Below are positions 1 through 50,229 of a DNA stretch of 64,000 bases, piece after piece. The notes below the pieces were generated by a model that was not told the DNA's origin, did no database searches, and saw only the letters and a list, made by a program, of their open reading frames with translations. Positions within the stretch are counted from its first letter, which is position 1. Each line of letters begins with the position of its first letter. The stretch is taken from assembly GCF_057098645.1 (NCBI RefSeq), contig NZ_CM169472.1; one strand, 5' to 3'. Made by a program: the position numbers and the translations under genes.

Positions 1-1
1 C

Positions 2-289
2 TACTGGACGCACCCAGAATACGCCAACCTGTTTGGGGATAGAGAGGCAATTTCAGCTGATGAGTTCAGATCTTTCTGCAAGCAGCATGGCATTGAATCA
101 TCAATTGTTGAAATGGAAAACGACAACAATCAAACGGTAATTGACGCGTATTTTGAAGATGGGAATCCAAACATCAGTGGATGGGAGCCAAGCATGCCAG
201 ATGGAAAAGGATGGTTTGTCGGTTCGATTCACGATACAGAAGACGGTCCGATCTGCGTTTGGTTCAGGAATGTAGATAAGGCCGCATAG
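2..289 (+). CDS. Phage early-region protein, C-terminal fragment (5' end outside window)
   Basis: Open frame from the window edge to TAG at 287..289 (about 95 codons), same strand as the downstream phage operon. No start codon in window. Confidence 0.35.
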   Translation, partial: YWTHPEYANLFGDREAISADEFRSFCKQHGIESSIVEMENDNNQTVIDAYFEDGNPNISGWEPSMPDGKGWFVGSIHDTEDGPICVWFRNVDKAA

Positions 290-352
290 TCGGCCTTTAT
301 TTTTGGCATAAACAAGAGAATAAACACTGCACTGAATTATTTGAGGTGAGAT

Positions 353-823
353 ATGACAAAATCATGGAGCGTACCTTTTCCTGAATCAGAAACTGAACAT
401 GATGGAATGCCTGTTTTCTGGAGATTCCAAGCGACAGTTGAAGAAGATGGAATCAAAATATTCGCACTTCAATATATAGCTTTTCATCAGACAGAGCATT
501 ATGCATGGTTGGTTCCTTCGCATTGGATTGTTAATTTTAAACCAGCACCAAATCAGTGGTTACAGGAATGGAAACAAAGGAGAAATAGATATGCAATTAA
601 GAAAGTAGCAAAAAATGCAGAAAGATCTTTTGCATTCCCGACGAAGAAACTTGCCATTGAAAGTTTATTGCGCCGGAAGAAATACCATTTGATGAGAATC
701 AAACAAGATTTGGCTGTTGTATCAACTCTTGTTGATGGGATGAAGAATATTGATACATCAACACCAGATATTGAATATAACTTTGGACACAACCAAGAAA
801 CAGAAAATTGGGTGTTTTATTAG
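353..823 (+). CDS. Hypothetical phage protein (156 aa), function unknown
   Basis: ORF with a GAGGTGA Shine-Dalgarno-like sequence just upstream of the ATG. AT-rich codon usage typical of phage accessory genes. No family recognised. Confidence 0.55.
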   Translation: MTKSWSVPFPESETEHDGMPVFWRFQATVEEDGIKIFALQYIAFHQTEHYAWLVPSHWIVNFKPAPNQWLQEWKQRRNRYAIKKVAKNAERSFAFPTKKLAIESLLRRKKYHLMRIKQDLAVVSTLVDGMKNIDTSTPDIEYNFGHNQETENWVFY

Positions 824-973
824 TACGAATAAGCACTGTATATTCATTCCAACGAGTGAATACACGGAGCAATGTCGCTCGTAACTAAACAGGAGCCGAC
901 TTGTTCTGATTATTGGAAATCTTCTTTGCCATCCAATGTGAGGGCGTTTTTTTATCTATGAGGATATGAATAG

Positions 974-1342
974 ATGTCAAACATCAAAAAATACATCATT
1001 GATTACGACTGGAAAGCATCAATAGAAATTGAAATCGACCATGACGTAATGACAGAGGAAAAACTTCACCAGATTAATAATTTCTGGTCAGACTCTGAAT
1101 ACCGACTCAATAAACACGGCGCTGTATTAAATGCTGTATTAATCATGCTGGCGCAACATGCTCTGCTTATAGCAATTTCGAAAGACTTAAATGCATATGG
1201 TGTTGTTTGTGAGTTCGACTGGGATGATGGAAATGGTCAGAAAGGATGGCCTCCAATGGATGGTAGTGAAGGAATAAGAATTACCGATATCGATACATCA
1301 GGAATATTTGATTCAGATGATATGACTATCAAGGCCGCCTGA
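974..1342 (+). CDS. ea10: Lambda Ea10-like protein
   Basis: 122-aa translation matches my recollection of lambda Ea10 and sits immediately upstream of cIII, as in lambda. Confidence 0.7.
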   Translation: MSNIKKYIIDYDWKASIEIEIDHDVMTEEKLHQINNFWSDSEYRLNKHGAVLNAVLIMLAQHALLIAISKDLNAYGVVCEFDWDDGNGQKGWPPMDGSEGIRITDIDTSGIFDSDDMTIKAA

Positions 1343-1414
1343 GTGCGGTTTTACCGCATACCAATAACGCTTCACTCGAGGCGTTTTTCGTTATGTATAA
1401 ATAAGGAGCACACC

Positions 1415-1579
1415 ATGCAATATGCCATTGCAGGGTGGCCTGTTGCTGGCTGCCCTTCCGAATCTTTACTTGAACGAATCACCCGTAAATTACGTGACGG
1501 ATGGAAACGACTTATCGACATACTTAATCAGCCAGGAGTCCCCAAAAATGGATCAAATACTTATGGCTATCCAGACTAA
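1415..1579 (+). CDS. cIII: CIII (FtsH inhibitor, stabilises CII)
   Basis: 54-aa translation [54 protein letters not shown], recognised as lambda CIII. Internal ATG at 1415 with AAGGAG RBS upstream. Confidence 0.8.
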   Translation: MQYAIAGWPVAGCPSESLLERITRKLRDGWKRLIDILNQPGVPKNGSNTYGYPD

Positions 1580-1691
1580 ATTCACTATCGCCACTTTTAT
1601 TGGCGATGAAAAGATGTTTCGTGAGGCCGTCGACGCTTATAAAAAATGGATATTAATACTGAAACTGAGATCAGGCAAAAGCATTCACTAA
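1548..1691 (+). CDS. kil: Kil (host-killing / cell division inhibitor)
   Basis: 47-aa translation [47 protein letters not shown], lambda Kil-like. Overlaps the cIII 3' end in another frame as in lambda. Confidence 0.75.
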
Positions 1692-1766
1692 TCCCCTTTC
1701 CTGTTTTCCTAATCAGCCTGGCATTTCGCGGGCGATATTTTCACAGCCATTTTCAGGAGTTCAGCC

Positions 1767-2063
1767 ATGAACGCTTATTACATTCAGGATCGTCTTGAGG
1801 CTCAGAGTTGGGCGCGTCACTACCAGCAGATCGCCCGTGAAGAGAAAGAGGCAGAACTGGCAGACGACATGGAAAAAGGCCTGCCCCAGCACCTGTTTGA
1901 ATCGCTATGCATCGATCATTTGCAACGCCACGGGGCCAGCAAAAAAGCCATTACCCGTGCGTTTGATGACGATGTTGAGTTTCAGGAGCGCATGGCAGAA
2001 CACATCCGGTACATGGTTGAAACCATTGCTCACCACCAGGTTGATATTGATTCAGAGGTATAA
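1767..2063 (+). CDS. gam: Gam (RecBCD inhibitor), 98-aa form
   Basis: Translation [39 protein letters not shown]... recognised as lambda Gam. Directly upstream of bet. Confidence 0.9.
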
Positions 2064-2068
2064 AACGG

Positions 2069-2854
2069 ATGAGTACAGCACTCGCAACGCTGGCTGGGAA
2101 GCTGGCTGAACGTGTCGGCATGGATTCTGTCGACCCACAGGAACTGATCACCACTCTTCGCCAGACGGCATTTAAAGGTGATGCCAGCGATGCGCAGTTC
2201 ATCGCATTGTTGATCGTCGCCAACCAGTACGGCCTTAATCCGTGGACGAAAGAAATTTACGCCTTCCCTGATAAGCAGAACGGCATCGTTCCGGTGGTGG
2301 GCGTTGATGGCTGGTCCCGCATCATCAATGAAAACCAGCAGTTTGATGGCATGGACTTTGAGCAGGACAATGAATCATGTACATGCAGGATTTACCGCAA
2401 GGACCGTAATCATCCGATCTGCGTTACCGAATGGATGGATGAATGCCGCCGCGAACCATTCAAAACCCGCGAAGGCAGAGAAATCACCGGACCGTGGCAG
2501 TCGCATCCCAAACGGATGTTACGGCATAAATCCATGATTCAGTGTGCCCGTCTCGCCTTCGGATTTGCTGGTATCTATGACAAGGATGAAGCCGAGCGCA
2601 TTGTCGAAAATACTGCATACACTGCAGAACGTCAGCTGGAACGCGACATCACTCCGGTTAACGATGAAACCATGCAGGAGATTAACACTCTGCTAATCGC
2701 CCTGGATAAAACATGGGATGACGACTTATTGCCGCTCTGTTCCCAGATATTTCGCCGCGACATTCGCGCATCGTCAGAACTGACACAGGCCGAAGCAGTG
2801 AAAGCTCTTGGATTCCTGAAACAGAAAGCCACTGAGCAGAAGGTGGCAGCATGA
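2069..2854 (+). CDS. bet: Bet (Red beta single-strand annealing protein)
   Basis: 261-aa translation [48 protein letters not shown]... recognised as lambda Bet. Confidence 0.92.
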
Positions 2855-3531
2855 CACCGGACATTATCCTGCAGCGTACCGGGATCGACGTGAGAGCTGT
2901 CGAACAGGGGGATGATGCATGGCACAAATTACGGCTCGGCGTCATCACCGCTTCAGAAGTTCACAACGTGATAGCAAAGCCCCGCTCAGGAAAGAAGTGG
3001 CCTGACATGAAAATGTCCTACTTCCACACCCTGCTGGCTGAGGTTTGCACCGGTGTGGCTCCGGAAGTTAATGCTAAGGCGCTGGCCTGGGGAAAACAGT
3101 ACGAGAACGACGCCAGAACCCTGTTTGAATTCACTTCCGGCGTGAATGTTACTGAATCCCCGATCATCTATCGCGACGAAAGTATGCGTACCGCCTGCTC
3201 TCCGGATGGATTATGCAGTGACGGCAACGGCCTTGAGCTGAAATGTCCGTTTACCTCCCGGGATTTCATGAAATTCCGGCTCGGTGGTTTCGAGGCCATA
3301 AAATCAGCTTACATGGCCCAGGTGCAATTCAGCATGTGGGTGACTCGAAAAGATGCCTGGTACTTTGCCAACTATGACCCGCGCATGAAGCGTGAAGGCC
3401 TGCATTATGTCGTGGTCGAGCGGGATGAAAAATACATGGCTGGTTTTGACGAGATGGTGCCGGAGTTCATCGAAAAAATGGACGAGGCACTGGCTGAAAT
3501 TGGTTTTGTATTTGGGGAGCAATGGCGATGA
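2851..3531 (+). CDS. exo: Exo (Red alpha 5'-3' exonuclease)
   Basis: 226-aa translation [40 protein letters not shown]... recognised as lambda Exo. Start overlaps the bet stop (ATGA). Confidence 0.92.
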
Positions 3532-3710
3532 AGCATCCTCACGATAATATCCGGGTAGGCGCGATCACTTTCGTCTACTCCGTTACAAAGCGAGGCTGGG
3601 TATTTCCCGGCCTTTCTGTTATCCGAAATCCGCTGAAAGCCCAGCGGCTGGCTGAGGAGATAAATAATAAACGAGGGGCTGTATGCACAAAGCATCTCCT
3701 GTTGAGTTAA
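3522..3710 (+). CDS. Small phage ORF (62 aa), lambda orf61/orf63/orf60a-region equivalent
   Basis: Start overlaps the exo 3' end. Position matches the small ORFs downstream of exo in lambda. No function known. Confidence 0.45.
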
Positions 3711-3874
3711 GAACGAGCATTGAGATTGCACATAGCCTTGCTCAAATTGGAGTCAGGTTTGTGCCAATACCAGTAGAAACAGACGAAGAATTTCATACGT
3801 TAGCCGCATCCCTTTCACAAAAGCTGGAAATGATGGTGGCGAAAGCAGAAGCAGATGAGAGAGACCAGGTATGA
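3683..3874 (+). CDS. Small phage ORF (63 aa)
   Basis: Overlaps the preceding ORF, which is typical phage gene packing. Acidic C-terminus. Confidence 0.45.
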   Translation: MHKASPVELRTSIEIAHSLAQIGVRFVPIPVETDEEFHTLAASLSQKLEMMVAKAEADERDQV

Positions 3875-3954
3875 CAACCACTGAATGCATTTTTCTGGCA
3901 GCGGGCTTCATATTCTGTGTGCTTATGCTTGCCGACATGGGACTTGTTCAATGA
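3871..3954 (+). CDS. Putative 27-aa hydrophobic micropeptide
   Basis: ATG at 3871 overlaps the upstream stop (ATGA). Translation MTTTECIFLAAGFIFCVLMLADMGLVQ is one predicted transmembrane helix. Its stop overlaps the next ATG (3951). Confidence 0.3.
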   Translation: MTTTECIFLAAGFIFCVLMLADMGLVQ

Positions 3955-4166
3955 CACCTCAGCAAGAAAACGCCCTTCGCAGTATTGCCCGTCAGGCTAA
4001 TTCTGAAATCAAAAAAGCCAGACAGCAGTTTCCGGATAAAAACGTCGATGACATTTGCCGTAGCGTACTGAAGAAGCACCGCGAAACGGTAACGCTGATG
4101 GGATTCACACCGACTCACTTAAGTCTGGCAATCGGTATGTTAAACGGCGTCTTTAAGGAACGGTGA
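3951..4166 (+). CDS. Small phage ORF (71 aa)
   Basis: Internal ATG of ORF 3885..4166, chosen because it is translationally coupled to the upstream micropeptide. Translation MTPQQENALRSIARQANSEIKKARQQF... Confidence 0.4.
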   Translation: MTPQQENALRSIARQANSEIKKARQQFPDKNVDDICRSVLKKHRETVTLMGFTPTHLSLAIGMLNGVFKER

Positions 4167-4264
4167 ACATGAAAAGCAAAATCATCAGGGAGCTACAGGC
4201 TCCTTTTTTATTATTCGCATTCACCCTCAAGCGTATTAACCAACAATTCAGGGATTAATGAAAG

Positions 4265-4486
4265 ATGGCAGATATCATTGATTCAGCATCAGAAATTGAA
4301 GAATTACAGCGCAATACAGCAATAAAAATGCGTCGCCTGAACTACCAGACTGTATCCGCAACTCATTGTTGTGAGTGTGGCGATCCGATAGATGAACGAA
4401 GACGCCTGGCAGTTCAGGGTTGTCGGACTTGTGCAAGTTGCCAGGAGGATCTGGAGCTTATCAGTAAACAGAGAGGTTCGAAGTGA
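4265..4486 (+). CDS. TraR/DksA-family C4 zinc-finger protein (lambda orf73-like)
   Basis: 73 aa with CxxC...CxxC (CCECGDPIDERRRLAVQGCRTCASC), the DksA/TraR zinc-ribbon signature. Confidence 0.7.
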   Translation: MADIIDSASEIEELQRNTAIKMRRLNYQTVSATHCCECGDPIDERRRLAVQGCRTCASCQEDLELISKQRGSK

Positions 4487-5169
4487 GCGAAATTAATTAT
4501 CAGGCACTGCGTGAAAAGGCAGAGAAAGCAACTAAAGGAAGCTACATCGTAGGGCATACATCTGTTAACCAGCACGGCAATTTAACAGGAGTTTTTGTTT
4601 GCCAAAAATGGAAAGGAGAACCCGGTGGTGTGATTGCGGAATGTCATGTTAACTGCCTGGTTGAAACAGATGTTCAGGCTTATGCAAACGCTGAATTTAT
4701 TGCTGCTTTTAATCCAAATGTTGCGCTGGCACTACTGGATGAACGGGAAAGAAACCAGCAATACATCAAACGCCGCGACCAGGAGAACGAGGAGATTGCG
4801 CTTACGGTTGGGAAGCTGCGCGTTGAGCTGGAAGCCGCAGAGAAGCGCAACGCAAAATTACAAAGCGAGAATGCATACATCCGCAACCGGTACAAAGAAC
4901 TGGACCTGTTAATCGGGAAAAACATTCTGGTCATGCAGGCTGCCATTATCGAATGGCAATCGACTGGCGACGCTAAAAGCGGACTGGCATGGATTTATAA
5001 CACACTGTTTGGCCCAGGCGAATTGCCGGACGAATCTGAGAAAGATGCTCAGGCCTACTTTAATCGCAAATATGCACCGATTGACGAAAAGCTTATGGCG
5101 CTTCACAAGTGGTTTTGGGAACAAAGTGAAGCCGAGCGCGCCGCTGGCATTTGCATCAAAGGAGAGTGA
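4483..5169 (+). CDS. Ea22-like coiled-coil accessory protein (228 aa)
   Basis: Central heptad-rich segment (ALTVGKLRVELEAAEKRNAKLQSENAYIRNRYKELD). Position between exo and xis as for lambda ea22. Function unknown. Confidence 0.5.
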   Translation: MSEINYQALREKAEKATKGSYIVGHTSVNQHGNLTGVFVCQKWKGEPGGVIAECHVNCLVETDVQAYANAEFIAAFNPNVALALLDERERNQQYIKRRDQENEEIALTVGKLRVELEAAEKRNAKLQSENAYIRNRYKELDLLIGKNILVMQAAIIEWQSTGDAKSGLAWIYNTLFGPGELPDESEKDAQAYFNRKYAPIDEKLMALHKWFWEQSEAERAAGICIKGE

Positions 5170-5170
5170 T

Positions 5171-5674
5171 ATGACCACTATTACCAAAGAGCGACTACTG
5201 ACAATCAAGCAGTGGCGCGAAACATACGGACCTGGTAGCAACGTTGTACTGCCAGCAGAAGAAGCGGAAGAACTGGCACGAATTGCTCTGGCATCGCTGG
5301 AAGCAAAACCAATAGCGTGGGAATGCGGCGAAAACATAATCCTGTTTAATCCTGACACAGTTGAAGCATACGCAAAACGTGCGGAGATATCACCTAAACC
5401 ACTATATGCCGCGCCGCCAGTTCCGGTAACTCCGGATGGTTGGATAAGCTGTAGTGAGCAAATGCCAGAAATGGGAGAGCGACAATGCTATGTGTTAGCG
5501 GCTGACTTTAAAAACAACTACCCGCCAAACATCCCCAACACTCAGGTCGGCGTATATGGCGACTGGTTTAATGATGGCAATCCCACTTGGGATGACGGTG
5601 ATGGCGAAGACCTGTATCTCAAAGAGGTAACCCACTGGATGCCGCTACCGGAACCGCCGCAGGAGGTGAAGTGA
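5171..5674 (+). CDS. DUF551-like phage protein (167 aa)
   Basis: Internal ATG at 5171 immediately after the Ea22-like stop, preceded by AAAGGAGAG. C-terminal W/D/G-rich region (GDWFNDGNPTWDDGDGEDLYLKEVTHWMPLP) resembles DUF551 proteins common in prophage accessory regions. Confidence 0.55.
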   Translation: MTTITKERLLTIKQWRETYGPGSNVVLPAEEAEELARIALASLEAKPIAWECGENIILFNPDTVEAYAKRAEISPKPLYAAPPVPVTPDGWISCSEQMPEMGERQCYVLAADFKNNYPPNIPNTQVGVYGDWFNDGNPTWDDGDGEDLYLKEVTHWMPLPEPPQEVK

Positions 5675-5757
5675 TGAATTGGCCTGAAGCATTCACCGCT
5701 GTAGGAGTTGCAATAGCGGTGGCATTTATTCTGTATTCGCTTTTCCGCTGGGGATAA
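5674..5757 (+). CDS. Putative 27-aa hydrophobic micropeptide
   Basis: ATG overlaps the upstream TGA (5672..5674), with AGGAGGTGA RBS. Translation MNWPEAFTAVGVAIAVAFILYSLFRWG is one predicted transmembrane helix. Confidence 0.3.
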   Translation: MNWPEAFTAVGVAIAVAFILYSLFRWG

Positions 5758-5761
5758 AGGA

Positions 5762-6004
5762 ATGTTCGCTCTGATTCAACGTGGTCAGATATACACCGAT
5801 AGCGCCGGCTATCCGATAAAAATTCTTCGCTGCATAAACAACACTGTGTTGTACAGAAGAATGGATGGGCGAACACAGTCGGTAAAAATAAACGATTTTA
5901 ATGAACTGTTTGAACGGATTGATCACCAGGAATACCGACAAATTCTGGCAGAAACAGAGCAGGAAGCTCATCTGAAAAAATTACGAGCCATGAAAAGGAA
6001 GTAA
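5762..6004 (+). CDS. Hypothetical phage protein (80 aa)
   Basis: ORF begins 5 nt after the micropeptide stop, same operon orientation. No family recognised. Confidence 0.45.
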   Translation: MFALIQRGQIYTDSAGYPIKILRCINNTVLYRRMDGRTQSVKINDFNELFERIDHQEYRQILAETEQEAHLKKLRAMKRK

Positions 6005-6007
6005 AGA

Positions 6008-6142
6008 ATGAATAAAGCATTTGAACGATGGGTCCACCAGCGTTACGGCAATCGCTATGACCTGACGCGAGGTGGTGACGGTTTCTACTGTCGTGAAGTT
6101 GTGAAGCGAATGTTTGAAGTGTGGTGCCACTGCCGTGGATGA
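6008..6142 (+). CDS. Putative 44-aa Cys/His-rich small protein
   Basis: ATG 4 nt after the preceding stop. Translation MNKAFERWVHQRYGNRYDLTRGGDGFYCREVVKRMFEVWCHCRG. Not in the supplied ORF track, which has a 60-aa cut-off. Confidence 0.3.
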   Translation: MNKAFERWVHQRYGNRYDLTRGGDGFYCREVVKRMFEVWCHCRG

Positions 6143-6160
6143 AAATTTTATGAGGTTGGC

Positions 6161-6415
6161 ATGCAGACAATCATCTATCAGATAACCCCCAGCAAATGGT
6201 GTACGGAGAGAGTCCTCATTGCATCAACAGGGCTAAAGCCTGGCACCATCGAGCGAGCCAGAAGAAAGTCATGGATGCAGGGAAAAGAATACCGCCATTA
6301 CGCTGTAGAAGGTGATCCGGGGCATTACAGTGAATGCCTGTACAACATCGAAGAAATTATGCGATGGATCGAAAACCAGAAACAACCAGGTGCCAAAAAT
6401 GCAAGTTCCGGTTAA
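6161..6415 (+). CDS. xis: Excisionase-like DNA-binding protein
   Basis: 84-aa basic protein immediately upstream of int, as expected for a phage Xis. Assignment is by position and composition, not by strong sequence recognition. Confidence 0.5.
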   Translation: MQTIIYQITPSKWCTERVLIASTGLKPGTIERARRKSWMQGKEYRHYAVEGDPGHYSECLYNIEEIMRWIENQKQPGAKNASSG

Positions 6416-6448
6416 CCTGTTAATGCTCCTGGACGTCTGGGAGGTTTT

Positions 6449-7735
6449 ATGAGTAACGCATCATACCCGACAGGCGTTGAAAACCATGGAGGATCACTCC
6501 GTATATGGTTTCACTATAATGGCAAACGTGTCAGAGAAAACCTCGGTGTTCCTGACACCGCCAAAAACCGGAAGATCGCTGGTGAGCTTCGCACTTCTGT
6601 TTGTTTTGCAATCAGAATGGGGAGTTTCGACTACGCCGCGCAGTTCCCTAATTCCCCTAACCTGAAACACTTTGGTCTGGGAAAAAGAGAGATAACCGTT
6701 AAGGCACTTTCGGAAAAATGGTTGGACCTTAAGAAAATTGAGATTTGTACGAATGCACTTAACCGTTACCAGTCAGTAATTAAAAACATGTTACCAATGT
6801 TAGGTGAAAAAAAACTGGTTTCATCCATAACAAAAGAGGATTTACTTTTCGTAAGGAGAGATTTGTTGACCGGTTACCAAAAGCTTTCTAATGGAAAGAC
6901 TTCTTCCATAAAAGGGCGCTCAGTGGTCACGGTAAACTACTATATGACAACCATAGCTGGAATGTTTCAATTTGCAACAGATAATGGTTATACCTCAGGA
7001 AACCCATTTAACGGTCTGGCTCCCTTAAAAAAGTCCAAGGTAAAACCAGATCCTCTCACCCGTGACGAATTTATTCGTTTTATTGAGGCTTGCCGTCATC
7101 AACAAACAAAAAACCTGTGGATTCTCGCTGTATACACGGGTATTCGTCACGGGGAGTTGGTATCGCTGGCATGGGAAGATATAGACCTTAAAGCAAGGAC
7201 TATAACCATCCGTAGAAATTATACAAAACTTGGCGAATTCACTCCACCAAAAACCGATGCTGGCACCGGAAGGACAATTCATCTGGTTCAACCAGCTATT
7301 GATGCTCTTAAAAGCCAAGCGGAAATGACCATGCTTGGAAAGCAACATTCTGTAGAGGTAAAGCAGAGGGAATATGGGAGAACTGCTGTGCATAAATGTA
7401 CTTTTGTTTTTAGCCCTCAGGTAATAAAACAGCAGCTGTTGTCTGGACCTCACTACAAAGTTGACTCCATCAGGGAGTCATGGACAAGTATCTTAAAACG
7501 CGCAGGTCTGAGACACAGAAAATCGTACCAATCCAGGCATACTTATGCATGCTGGTCACTTGCCGCTGGAGCTAATCCTAGTTTTATCGCAAGCCAGATG
7601 GGCCACACAAACGCACAAATGGTATTCAATGTTTACGGAGCATGGATGAAAGACAACAATCACGAACAGATAGAACTCCTTAACAAAAGACTATCTGAAA
7701 GTGTCCCATGTATGCCCCATAAGAAAGTGGGGTAA
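6449..7735 (+). CDS. int: Phage integrase, tyrosine recombinase family
   Basis: 428 aa. C-terminal catalytic region with conserved Arg/His and terminal Tyr (RHTYACW...GHTNAQMVFNVYGAW). Last phage gene before the host junction. Confidence 0.9.
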   Translation: MSNASYPTGVENHGGSLRIWFHYNGKRVRENLGVPDTAKNRKIAGELRTSVCFAIRMGSFDYAAQFPNSPNLKHFGLGKREITVKALSEKWLDLKKIEICTNALNRYQSVIKNMLPMLGEKKLVSSITKEDLLFVRRDLLTGYQKLSNGKTSSIKGRSVVTVNYYMTTIAGMFQFATDNGYTSGNPFNGLAPLKKSKVKPDPLTRDEFIRFIEACRHQQTKNLWILAVYTGIRHGELVSLAWEDIDLKARTITIRRNYTKLGEFTPPKTDAGTGRTIHLVQPAIDALKSQAEMTMLGKQHSVEVKQREYGRTAVHKCTFVFSPQVIKQQLLSGPHYKVDSIRESWTSILKRAGLRHRKSYQSRHTYACWSLAAGANPSFIASQMGHTNAQMVFNVYGAWMKDNNHEQIELLNKRLSESVPCMPHKKVG

Positions 7736-7773
7736 AATAAAAACTTGTAAAATCAGTTAGTTTACCCTTAATC

Positions 7774-8373
7774 CCTGTCACGTTACGCGCGTGGCAGAGG
7801 CGTTACGGATTGCTGAAACCGCAACGGACAGACGGCGGTCATCGGCTGTTCAACGATGCCGATATTGACCGGATCCGCGAGATCAAACGCTGGATCGACA
7901 ACGGCGTGCAGGTCAGCAAAGTTAAAATGCTGCTCAGTAATGAAAATGTTGATGTGCAGAACGGCTGGCGCGATCAGCAAGAAACATTACTGACTTACCT
8001 GCAAAGCGGCAATCTACATAGCCTGCGAACGTGGATCAAAGAGCGCGGTCAGGATTACCCCGCCCAGACACTCACCACACATCTGTTTATTCCTCTGCGC
8101 CGACGGCTTCAGTGCCAACAACCGACTCTCCAGGCGCTGCTGGCGATCCTCGACGGCGTACTGATCAACTACATCGCCATTTGTCTGGCTTCGGCACGTA
8201 AAAAACAGGGTAAAGATGCGCTGGTGGTTGGCTGGAATATTCAGGATACCACCCGTCTGTGGCTGGAGGGCTGGATTGCCAGTCAACAAGGATGGCGCAT
8301 TGATGTCCTCGCCCACTCGCTCAATCAACTACGCCCTGAACTATTCGAAGGCCGTACATTGCTGGTGCGGTGA
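7774..8373 (+). pseudogene. mlrA: mlrA (yehV) MerR-family curli regulator, 3' fragment lacking N-terminal HTH codons
   Basis: In-frame translation from about 7774 reads PVTLRAWQRRYGLLKPQRTDGGHRLFNDADIDRIREIKRW..., which matches MlrA from roughly residue 17 onward. Upstream sequence is phage (int). The ORF-track start at 7810 is a TTG. Confidence 0.8.
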
Positions 8374-8511
8374 AAATCGAACCTCCGCCCAACAGCAGCA
8401 ACTCACCAGTTGGCAAGAACAAGGCCATGATATTTTCCCACTCGGCATTTAATGATTCGTTAACAAATGCGCTTTACTGTACAATCCTTTCGTTAACATA
8501 AGGAGTGCATT

Positions 8512-8619
8512 ATGCGCATAGCTAAAATTGGGGTCATCGCCCTGTTCCTGTTTATGGCGTTAGGCGGAATTGGTGGCGTCATGCTCGCAGGTTATACCTT
8601 TATTTTGCGTGCTGGCTAA
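8512..8619 (+). CDS. yohO: Small membrane protein YohO (35 aa)
   Basis: ATG preceded by AAGGAG. Translation [35 protein letters not shown] is a single transmembrane helix. Conserved position between mlrA and yehW. Confidence 0.6.
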
Positions 8620-17725: not shown

Positions 17726-17898
17726 GATGAGCATTCAGATAGTGGTTCACGCGCACGGGTTGCGCACCGCCGGAGTAAGGATTTACTGAGGCTAGCGACG
17801 CCATCATAACGAGCAAAAAGTGCGATCGTCAAAGGAGAATCGTGAGGAAATGCTGCATTGCTGACATTTACGCCAGCAATGCAACGTCAAAGAACTTT

Positions 17899-23241: not shown

Positions 23242-23443
23242 ATCATCACCCGCAAAAAAATGAGGCGCTATGTTAGCGCCTATGGTCAGCGGATTAAAGG
23301 TCTGCAAAGAGGGATTGCTGCAAACTGCAATCCCTCTCTATGCTTGATGTATGCCTGAGTTCGCTGCGCATTGCGTAATGCCGGGGAGCGAAAAAATAAG
23401 CGCTGATTTCTTAATGTGATCGGTAGCACGTTTTACGAATTAA

Positions 23444-29365: not shown

Positions 29366-29560
29366 CGCATCCGGCATTTGGTTCCTGTCGCCGGATGCGG
29401 CTTGAACGCCTTATCCGGCCTACAAAACCATACAAATCAGTATGTTGAGCTCATTGTAGGCCGGATAAAACGCGCCAGCGTTGCATCCGGCATTTGGCTC
29501 CTGTCGCCGGATGCGGCGTGAACGCCTTATCCGGCCTACAAAACCACACAGATCATGATG
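29366..29560. repeat. BIME: cluster of 3-4 REP elements in alternating orientation
   Basis: Repeated gccggatgcggc(g/t)tgaacgccttatccggcctacaaaacc units and an inverted copy, between the convergent preA and mglC. Confidence 0.8.
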
Positions 29561-45698: not shown

Positions 45699-46949
45699 CT
45701 ACGCTAAACCAATAAAGAACCCGGCAATGGTGGCACTCATCAGGTTAGAAAGTGTCGCCGCCGCCAGCGCGCGTAAACCAAGCTGGGCGATTTCCGGCGC
45801 ACGGTGTGGCGCAACCGCAGAAAACGCCCCCACCACCACCCCGATAGAACCAAAGTTAGCGAAACCGCACAACGCGAAGGAAATAATCGCCACGGTTTTA
45901 GCATCCAGAGTGCCAGCCGTTTGCAGATAGGGTGAGAAATTGAGATAAGCGACAAATTCATTTATTGCCAGTTTCTGTCCAATCAAACTCCCGGCAAGAT
46001 TCGCATCACTCCAGTCAACACCCATCACCCACGCCAGTGGAGCCAACAGGTAACCTAAAATGGACTCCAGCGAGGCATGTTCAAAACCAAACCAGCCGCC
46101 AACGCCGCCGATAATACCGTTAATTAACGCAATGATGGCGACAAATGCCATCACCACTGTCGCCACACCTGCGGCGATTTTCAGCCCGGTCATTGCCCCT
46201 GTCGCAGCGGCTTCAATAATGCTTTTTGGCGGTGTTTCGGTGAAAGAGAGGTTATTAAAAGAAACCTGCGAAGATTCCGTAGCCGGGCTTAACAGGCGGG
46301 CAAACAAGATTCCGCCTGGGATCGCCATTAACGATGCCGCCAGCAAATATTCCACAGGTACGCCCAGTGCGGCGTAACCAATCATTGTCGAACCAGCAAT
46401 CGAGGCCATGCCACTACAAATCGCTGTAAATAATTCATTGCGATTCAGCCGATCGATAAAGGGTTTGACGATTGCCGGAATTTCGTTTTGCCCGAGGAAA
46501 ATGGTAGTGACCGCGACGAATGACTCGATCTTGCTGATATTTAATGCTTTCTGGAATATACCGCCGAGAATGCGAATTAAGATCCCCATCACACCGATGT
46601 AATAGAGAATACTCACCAGCGCGGTGACGAAGATAATTGCCGGTAACACTCTGAAACCAAAGATAAATCCTGCGCCATCAAACAGCGTGTCCATTTTCGG
46701 CCCGACCAGCGAACCGAAGATAAATGCGCTACCTGCATCGCTGTACGCCATCACTTTATGCACGCCAAAAGCGACTTTTTCAGCGACCCAACGCCCTGGC
46801 GGTAACCAAAGCATAATCCCGCCAATCACAACCTGTAACACTAACGCCGCGCCAACGGTACGCAGGCTGATCTTCTTCTTGTTTACTGACAGTAAAAACG
46901 CAATCGTCAGCAATACCACCATTCCCAGAACACTTCTCATGACATCCAT
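45699..46949 (-). CDS. nupX: Concentrative nucleoside transporter (CNT family)
   Basis: 416-aa polytopic transporter, highly similar to psuT in this window. Confidence 0.9.
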   Translation of the reverse strand: MDVMRSVLGMVVLLTIAFLLSVNKKKISLRTVGAALVLQVVIGGIMLWLPPGRWVAEKVAFGVHKVMAYSDAGSAFIFGSLVGPKMDTLFDGAGFIFGFRVLPAIIFVTALVSILYYIGVMGILIRILGGIFQKALNISKIESFVAVTTIFLGQNEIPAIVKPFIDRLNRNELFTAICSGMASIAGSTMIGYAALGVPVEYLLAASLMAIPGGILFARLLSPATESSQVSFNNLSFTETPPKSIIEAAATGAMTGLKIAAGVATVVMAFVAIIALINGIIGGVGGWFGFEHASLESILGYLLAPLAWVMGVDWSDANLAGSLIGQKLAINEFVAYLNFSPYLQTAGTLDAKTVAIISFALCGFANFGSIGVVVGAFSAVAPHRAPEIAQLGLRALAAATLSNLMSATIAGFFIGLA

Positions 46950-47048
46950 AGTTATTATCTCTTCATGTCATATTGGGCGACGGCTTTCTGCCCCTCAGAA
47001 ATAGCCGGGCCTGCATCTTGCGATACTGACCCGGCTTGTTATCAACAC

Positions 47049-48885: not shown

Positions 48886-50136
48886 TCAAGCTAAACCAAT
48901 AAAGAACCCGGCAATGGTCGCGCTCATCAGGTTGGAAAGCGTTGCTGCTGCCAGCGCCCGTAAACCAAGCTGGGCGATTTCCGGAGCACGTTTTGGCGAA
49001 ATAGCCGAAAATGCCCCAACGACAACACCGATAGAACCAAAGTTAGCAAAACCACAAAGCGCAAAGGAGATAATCGCAATGGTTTTCACTTCCAGCGTGC
49101 CGCCCGTTTGCAGGTATGGGGAGAAACTCAGGTAAGCGACGAATTCGTTAATCGCCAGTTTCTGCCCAATCAGGCTACCCGCAAGGTTGGCATCACTCCA
49201 GTCCACACCCATGATCCACGCCAGCGGTGCCAGCACATAGCCAAAAATACTTTCCAGAGAGGCATTGGCAAAACCAAACCAGCCGCCAATTCCGCCAATA
49301 ATGCCATTAATCAGCGCAATAATTGCGACAAACGCCATGACCACCGTCGCCACACCGGCGGCGATTTTCAACCCGGTCATCGCACCGCTCGCCGCCGCTT
49401 CGATAAAGCTTTTTGGCGGCGTTTCGCTGAACGACAGATTTTCAAACGTGACCTGCGAAGGCTCGGTTGCCGGACTAAGAATACGTGCAAACAAAATACC
49501 GCCGGGGATCGCCATCAGCGATGCCGCCAACAGGTAGTCAATTGGTACGCCCATTCCGGCATAACCAATCATCATCGAACCCGCAATGGACGCCATCCCG
49601 CTACAAATAGCCGTAAACAACTCGTTGCGATTCATGCGATCGATAAACGGTTTAACGATCGCCGGGATCTCATTTTGCCCGAGGAAAATAGTGGTAACCG
49701 CAACAAAAGATTCGATTTTGCTGATGTTGAGGGCTTTCTGGAAAATGCTGCCAAGGATGCGAATCAGCAGCCCCATCACGCCAATGTAGTACAGCAGACT
49801 AATGAGCGCAGTGACGAAGATAATCGCCGGGAGTACGCGAAAGGCGAAGATAAAGCCTGCGCCATCAAACAGGACATCCATTTTCGGCCCGACCAATGAA
49901 CCAAAAATAAAGGCACTGCCGGCGTCACTGTAAGACATCACTTTATGAACGCCTAATGCCGCCTGTTCTACTGCCCATTTTCCCGGCGGAAAATAGAGCA
50001 TGATGCCACCAATAGCGATTTGCAGCAGCAGTGCGGCTCCAACCGTGCGCAAACTGATGCTCTTTTTATTTACCGACAACAGAAATGCTATTGCCAGTAA
50101 CACCACCATCCCCACAACACTTCTCATTATATCCAT
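48886..50136 (-). CDS. psuT: Putative pseudouridine/nucleoside transporter (CNT family)
   Basis: 416 aa, paralogue of nupX. First gene downstream of psuG/psuK on the same strand. Confidence 0.88.
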   Translation of the reverse strand: MDIMRSVVGMVVLLAIAFLLSVNKKSISLRTVGAALLLQIAIGGIMLYFPPGKWAVEQAALGVHKVMSYSDAGSAFIFGSLVGPKMDVLFDGAGFIFAFRVLPAIIFVTALISLLYYIGVMGLLIRILGSIFQKALNISKIESFVAVTTIFLGQNEIPAIVKPFIDRMNRNELFTAICSGMASIAGSMMIGYAGMGVPIDYLLAASLMAIPGGILFARILSPATEPSQVTFENLSFSETPPKSFIEAAASGAMTGLKIAAGVATVVMAFVAIIALINGIIGGIGGWFGFANASLESIFGYVLAPLAWIMGVDWSDANLAGSLIGQKLAINEFVAYLSFSPYLQTGGTLEVKTIAIISFALCGFANFGSIGVVVGAFSAISPKRAPEIAQLGLRALAAATLSNLMSATIAGFFIGLA

Positions 50137-50229
50137 AATGATTTTCCCTTCATGCCAGTAAACCCGGCGTCAGCGCCAGGTTTCGGTATGTATGATCAGT
50201 ACGGGCGACGGCTTTCTGCCCGTCAGAAA

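Follow-up and report, generated by a model that had tools for sequence, protein, structure and literature searches.

The question raised by this locus is what is left of mlrA (yehV), and what the gene can still do, when its reading frame follows directly on the end of a phage integrase gene. The stretch of DNA analyzed here (the window) comprises 64,000 nucleotides of contig NZ_CM169472.1 (assembly GCF_057098645.1). MlrA is a MerR-like csgD activator whose C-terminal domain binds YdaM/DgcM at its GGDEF domain and YciR/PdeR at its EAL domain (PMC3715855).

The explanation that we favor, and to which we assign a probability of about 93%, is that a prophage has split mlrA by site-specific integration and that the gene has suffered a second lesion of 5 bp. 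According to this scheme, a lambdoid prophage with an integrase of the BP-4795/VT1-Sakai (Sp15)/CP-933V type would have been integrated by tyrosine recombination into its usual attB, inside codons 15-23 of E. coli mlrA, the host being probably an O145:H28-type strain. The integration would have parted the promoter, the start codon, and the first 16 codons (corresponding to the first helix of the MerR HTH) from the rest of the gene; the remaining piece would be unable to make a DNA-binding MlrA and, judging from the literature, MlrA-dependent csgD activation would be lost. In this sublineage, the remnant would also have lost 5 bp by slippage between two adjacent TGGTG copies, truncating the C-terminal domain that contacts DgcM and PdeR.

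The mlrA remnant and its possible function

The frame entered at position 7774 reads PVTLRAWQRRYGLL... and corresponds to residues 17-214 of K-12 MlrA, with identity at 198/198 positions, followed by an arginine and a premature TGA (7774..8373, + strand; defined by the ORF, the comparison with K-12, and Pfam). In the K-12 reference, mlrA is intact, comprises 243 codons, and has btsS on its 5' side. The preliminary description of the window had the mlrA frame start in mid-gene after the integrase, with about 16 codons missing at the junction, and both points hold. Indeed, codons 1-16 are absent from the entire window, and the sequence of a 5' mlrA primer (primer A, AAGTGGCGTTGCTTTGTGAT) was not found in the whole 64 kb, with up to 3 mismatches allowed. 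Nor is a complete in-frame N-terminus joined to 7774: past the TAA at 7738-7740, the remnant frame has no ATG, GTG, or TTG until it reaches the TTG at 7810.

The Pfam model MerR_1 aligns along its positions 1-68 with residues 4-72 of K-12 MlrA, and along positions 16-68 only with the remnant; the first helix of the MerR-type HTH (model positions 1-15) is gone. The remnant, then, has neither the complete N-terminal MerR HTH of a functional MlrA nor a canonical start and a promoter of its own, the int gene alone lying upstream. A promoter/terminator scan of positions 7300-8600 gave nothing exceeding shuffled expectation and revealed no sigma-70-like site on the + strand (this being a weak test), and the Rfam and tRNA scans of the entire window returned nothing relevant to the junction.

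The preliminary description left room for an intact 5' part being restored at the other end of the prophage. In the relatives RM13516 and 14EC017, no such restoration occurs: the far junction holds mlrA codons 1-22 and then a TGA made across the junction itself (GCG TG|A), giving a stub that encodes MALYTIGEVALLCDINPVTLRA before stopping, which RefSeq flags as an incomplete pseudogene. The window does not extend to the far end, and we infer from these relatives that the window's prophage would have the far junction ...GATATTAATCCTGTCACGTTACGCGCGTG|ACGCAACATTTTT with a 22-codon stub, and that the mlrA N-terminus would likewise fail to be restored there. The 66-nt 5' mlrA stub also carries a separate RefSeq annotation as an incomplete hypothetical protein.

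Insertions of this kind abolish or reduce csgD/curli expression, and intact mlrA restores curli (PMC3874044, PMC5931665), in agreement with the earlier expectation that this one would alter curli and csgD expression. In the account given by PMC5931665, citing Uhlich 2013, 2016, the mlrA prophage breaks the motif for DNA binding and keeps curli and biofilm formation low, its spontaneous or induced excision restores native mlrA in strain PA20, and run-off transcription of distal mlrA fragments is possible. Occupation of mlrA is an established cause of low EHEC curli and biofilm at ambient temperature, which bears on environmental persistence and strain typing. By analogy, MlrA-dependent csgD activation would be absent in the strain from which the window derives. 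In two O145 strains harboring a stx1-negative mlrA prophage, plasmid-borne mlrA did not restore Congo-red binding (PMC3874044); thus, the loss of mlrA may not be the sole or limiting defect in the lineage.

A different outcome can be imagined if the distal fragment were expressed, via int read-through or induction run-off, and acted without binding DNA, e.g., by means of a C-terminal domain titrating PdeR or DgcM. This is in line with the co-orientation of int and the remnant, with the lack of a + strand terminator-like site between them in the scan, and with the 20- to 60-fold increase of “distal mlrA” RNA after SOS induction (PMC5931665); the same paper, citing Uhlich 2016, also relates that recombinant distal fragments changed Congo-red affinity. 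However, csgD did not increase in PA20 when the distal fragment was strongly expressed (PMC5931665), and in the window the interacting domain is itself damaged, 24 of the 77 positions of the MlrA_C model being missing, so we regard such an activity as improbable here.

Far less credit is due to the idea that the gene is still functional, the phage DNA supplying a replacement start for a MlrA of 228-233 aa. This is what RefSeq annotation implies, since PGAP calls the equivalents in 14EC017, 14EC001, and RM13516 “HTH-type transcriptional regulator MlrA” and not pseudogenes, with starts placed 21-36 nt past the int stop. Such starts, however, are ATC (window 7771) or ATT, no in-frame ATG, GTG, or TTG being available; moreover, MerR_1 positions 1-15 are absent from the product, the C-terminus is frameshifted too in the window, and the curli loss of such strains and its reversal by intact mlrA (PMC3874044, PMC5931665) speak against it. 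Labels of intact mlrA with ATC/ATT starts in phage-derived DNA were observed in RefSeq/PGAP at loci L001 (1872-2558), L004 (48931-49632), and L016 (313-999). This labelling of truncated mlrA genes as intact can mislead automated genotype-to-phenotype calls.

The 5-bp deletion in the 3' part of mlrA

The preferred reading, i.e., prophage splitting plus a second lesion, includes a feature that the preliminary description overlooked. The end of the frame at 8373 is not the native stop but a premature TGA due to a 5-bp deletion, the native TAA lying at 8450-8452. K-12, 14EC017, and RM13516 read CTGGTGTGGTGCGGTG where the window reads CTGGTGCGGTG; alignments with these three strains show that one copy (5 bp) of a TGGTG tandem repeat has been deleted and that the other survives at 8363..8367 (+). 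Codon 215 becomes CGG and is followed by the TGA at 8371-8373, which removes the last 29 residues. The native C-terminus (...WCGENRTS...PLGI*) runs on out of frame: the tail with native codons 216-243 and the TAA occupies 8374..8452 (+), and, translated in frame 2, it terminates in ...WCGENRTSAQQQQLTSWQEQGHDIFPLGI*, the same C-terminus as in K-12. On the remnant, Pfam recovers a complete MlrA_helical domain and positions 1-53 of the 77 of MlrA_C, and the remnant has neither the complete MlrA_C nor the native stop of a functional MlrA.

One might ascribe the missing 5 bp to a sequencing or assembly error, in which case the remnant would truly end at the native stop at 8452. In favor of an artifact, the deletion is missing from all 5,121 complete E. 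coli genomes matching this stretch (from a set of 5,426), and the site is a short tandem repeat. Nevertheless, independent NCBI and Logan assemblies provide at least 14 contigs encoding the exact 187-aa product, each preceded by the integrase; one locus (L007) aligns with the window along 14.3 kb without gaps and with a single mismatch; and the same deletion recurs on at least 24 more contigs in which mlrA is unoccupied. Since the exact product is found in many independent assemblies, the deletion is a genuine allele, and an error, effectively refuted by these assemblies, is scarcely credible.

The contigs with an unoccupied mlrA encode what would be the product of excision (residues 1-214 plus R), and btsS lies directly upstream of the gene, as expected of an unoccupied attB; among the loci examined, L017-L020 (2001-2648) have this arrangement. 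At least three mlrA haplotypes can be distinguished among these unoccupied contigs; across 2.58 kb, two of them show 33 and 41 differences from the window, and one of these two has a SNP 10 nt from the deletion. The deletion is thus not confined to prophage-bearing strains, and the comparison points to a rare event that recurs by slippage at TGGTG-TGGTG and truncates MlrA at residue 214. Its presence on unoccupied mlrA in divergent backgrounds led us to reject the possibility that it represents solely the decay of a pseudogene after the insertion. As regards the lineage of the window, the most parsimonious order would be insertion first and deletion afterwards, because in the closest complete genomes the prophage is present but the deletion is not, and because the mlrA prophage is described as conserved in O145:H28 (PMC7067040).

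The deletion also bears on reversibility. Rejoining at the core would give MALYT...LLVR, a protein of 215 aa, and would not regenerate the intact frame. Because of the 5-bp deletion, precise excision would thus yield this truncated MlrA, predicted to be without part of the regulatory domain, versus the 243 aa of the wild type. The remnant has decayed further in one O145:H28-type sublineage, in which curing or inducing the prophage should not return wild-type MlrA. We can tentatively speculate that TGGTG-TGGTG, at mlrA codons 213-216, might be a recurrent slippage hot spot truncating MlrA independently in unrelated E. coli and, in prophage-bearing strains, converting a curli switch that is potentially reversible through excision into a permanent “off” state, although we consider this rather doubtful. 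The idea is based on the three or more unoccupied-attB haplotypes and on the prophage-occupied O145:H28-type sublineage. If the recurrence reflected selection, it would represent a second, convergent route to the loss of curli, beside prophage insertion and rpoS mutation.

The prophage arm and the attachment core

The integrase-proximal arm of a lambdoid prophage occupies positions 1..7767 (no strand assigned), the left edge of the window cutting the prophage, the remainder of which lies outside. The arm corresponds to the early/recombination region and contains cIII, kil, gam, bet, exo, ea22-like, DUF551, DUF4222, xis, and int genes. Over 337-7780, the identity with the Stx1-converting phage BP-4795 is 97%, and VT1-Sakai and YYZ-2008 match the same query at 96% identity over 82% of its length; the phage DNA of the window matches the mlrA prophage of strain 14EC001 at 100% identity, apart from an extra IS3 in the latter. 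An Rfam lambda cIII thermoregulator was detected at 1402-1460 (+, 88.5 bits), consistent with the early-left operon of this prophage being lambda-like.

The intact tyrosine integrase gene (6449..7735, +), whose end at 7735 had been correctly placed from the start, encodes 428 aa, the same length as the BP-4795 int. It is preceded by an xisR-type excisionase ORF of 84 aa (6161..6415, +), and a gene of the same size is annotated as xisR in 14EC017, RM13516, and 14EC001. In L007, the genes identical to the window's xis and int match PF06806 (DUF1233, excisionase) and PF12167 (Arm-DNA-bind_2) plus PF00589 (Phage_integrase), respectively. Both genes adjoin the mlrA junction, in the order xis-int-core-mlrA(17-214), as expected of a lambdoid prophage at the mlrA (yehV) attB. 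The attribution of the upstream DNA to a phage, already made in the preliminary description, is also in agreement with the K-12 arrangement, where btsS and not int lies 5' of an intact mlrA; on the grounds of sequence comparison, the DNA to the left of 7768 is assigned to the phage and that to the right to the chromosome. That the DNA 5' of 7774 is host DNA belonging to a merely diverged mlrA allele can be dismissed, as no point in its favor was found, btsS and the start of mlrA occupy the upstream position in K-12 and at the unoccupied loci L017-L020, and the int, xis, exo, and bet of the window are 97-100% identical to phage and prophage records.

The integrase-proximal copy of the att core, TTAATCCCTGTCACGTTACGCGCGTG, lies at 7768..7793 (+), as defined by the alignment with the K-12 attB, by the two junctions of RM13516 and the far one of 14EC017, and by the ends of the BP-4795 record. 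The earlier prediction of a core within 7740..7780 overlaps it in part, having been placed about 15 bp too far to the left. The core is 25/26 nt long, the phage version having one extra C (7773-7775) compared with attB, so that in the window it reads TTAATCC(C)TGTCACGTTACGCGCGTG. The K-12 attB is GATATTAATCC-TGTCACGTTACGCGCGTG GCAGAGG, the window junction ACCCTTAATCCCTGTCACGTTACGCGCGTG GCAGAGG, and the far junction of RM13516 and 14EC017 GATATTAATCC-TGTCACGTTACGCGCGTG ACGCAACATTTTT. The BP-4795 record ends with ...ACCCTTAATCCCTGTCACGTTACGCGCGTG and begins with ACGCAACATTTTT..., and joining the two ends gives an inferred attP that matches. The terminal 26 nt of this record are identical to window positions 7768-7793, where the homology with K-12 starts; the junction lies at the same core as that of this yehV-integrating phage. 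A copy of the core is found at both prophage ends in RM13516 and at both junctions in 14EC017. The host version is kept at the far junction and the phage version at the int-proximal one, which places the probable strand exchange to the right of the extra C; it would have occurred within the perfectly shared positions 7774-7793. Since the att core of the phage resembles codons 15-23 of mlrA, the similarity to this gene begins at 7768, and not at 7774.

Host background and comparison with known mlrA prophages

Positions 8400-33399 of the window show approximately 100% identity with two E. coli O145:H28 strains, RM13516 and RM12761. Compared with RM13516 along 50 kb of host flank, the window has 10 SNPs, the 5-bp deletion, and a single additional indel, namely a 1-bp intergenic insertion at 23254 between dusC and yohJ. 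Two segments of about 1.27 kb (45703-46967 and 48890-50154) are 79% identical to each other's RM13516 counterparts, and correspond to nupX and psuT, two paralogous genes for nucleoside transporters. Rfam also detected two ordinary chromosomal features, i.e., the REP-derived nucleoid-associated RNA naRNA4 at 29459-29536 (-) and the Peptidase-S11 RNA motif at 17730-17810 (-), upstream of pbpG.

RM13516 and RM12761 have a prophage at mlrA with the same int-core-mlrA junction as the window. RM13516, however, retains TGGTGTGGTG without the deletion and differs in its early region, which is of the yfdP/Q/R type, sharing with the window the int-proximal 5422-7770 only (about 2.3 kb, 96%). Similarly, a locus carrying the deletion (L012) has a visibly different prophage end and a nearly identical host flank, the approximately 125 mismatches being confined to the former (window 5500-7770 compared). 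The prophages residing at mlrA within the same host lineage are mosaic.

The insertion lies at the canonical yehV/mlrA integration site of EHEC prophages, and the phenomenon is already known. The int-mlrA junction is shared by 457 of the 5,426 complete E. coli genomes, and, according to the literature, over 95% of clinical O157:H7 isolates have mlrA prophage insertions. Primers F and B, published for the yehV junction (PMC3874044, where band sizes are also given), match positions 7264-7283 and 8065-8087, and the in silico product of 824 bp is exactly that published. BP-4795 (AJ556162) and its relatives VT1-Sakai/Sp15, CP-933V, YYZ-2008, and JLK-2012 are phages integrated in yehV/mlrA; the BP-4795 group resembles the window in the type and length of the integrase (428 aa), in xis, and in the att core, including the extra C, and 93% of the early region is covered by BP-4795 at 97% identity. 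This likeness to Stx1 phages covers the early region, as the window includes about 7.7 kb of prophage only and the late region lies outside it. No stx annotation is present in the closest complete mlrA prophages (14EC001 and RM13516), and PCR gave negative results for stx1 in O145 strains harboring mlrA prophages (PMC3874044).

As in O157:H7 PA20 and in non-O157 STEC, including O145, the insertion point falls in the proximal coding region, the F/B junction measures 824 bp, and the MerR DNA-binding motif is lost. Unlike PA20, the distal fragment of the window has an additional frameshift at codon 215, and excision would not give the wild-type protein. What this locus adds to the known systems is the exact coordinates of the core, the C-terminal frameshift and its recurrence elsewhere, and the labelling of truncated genes as intact in RefSeq.
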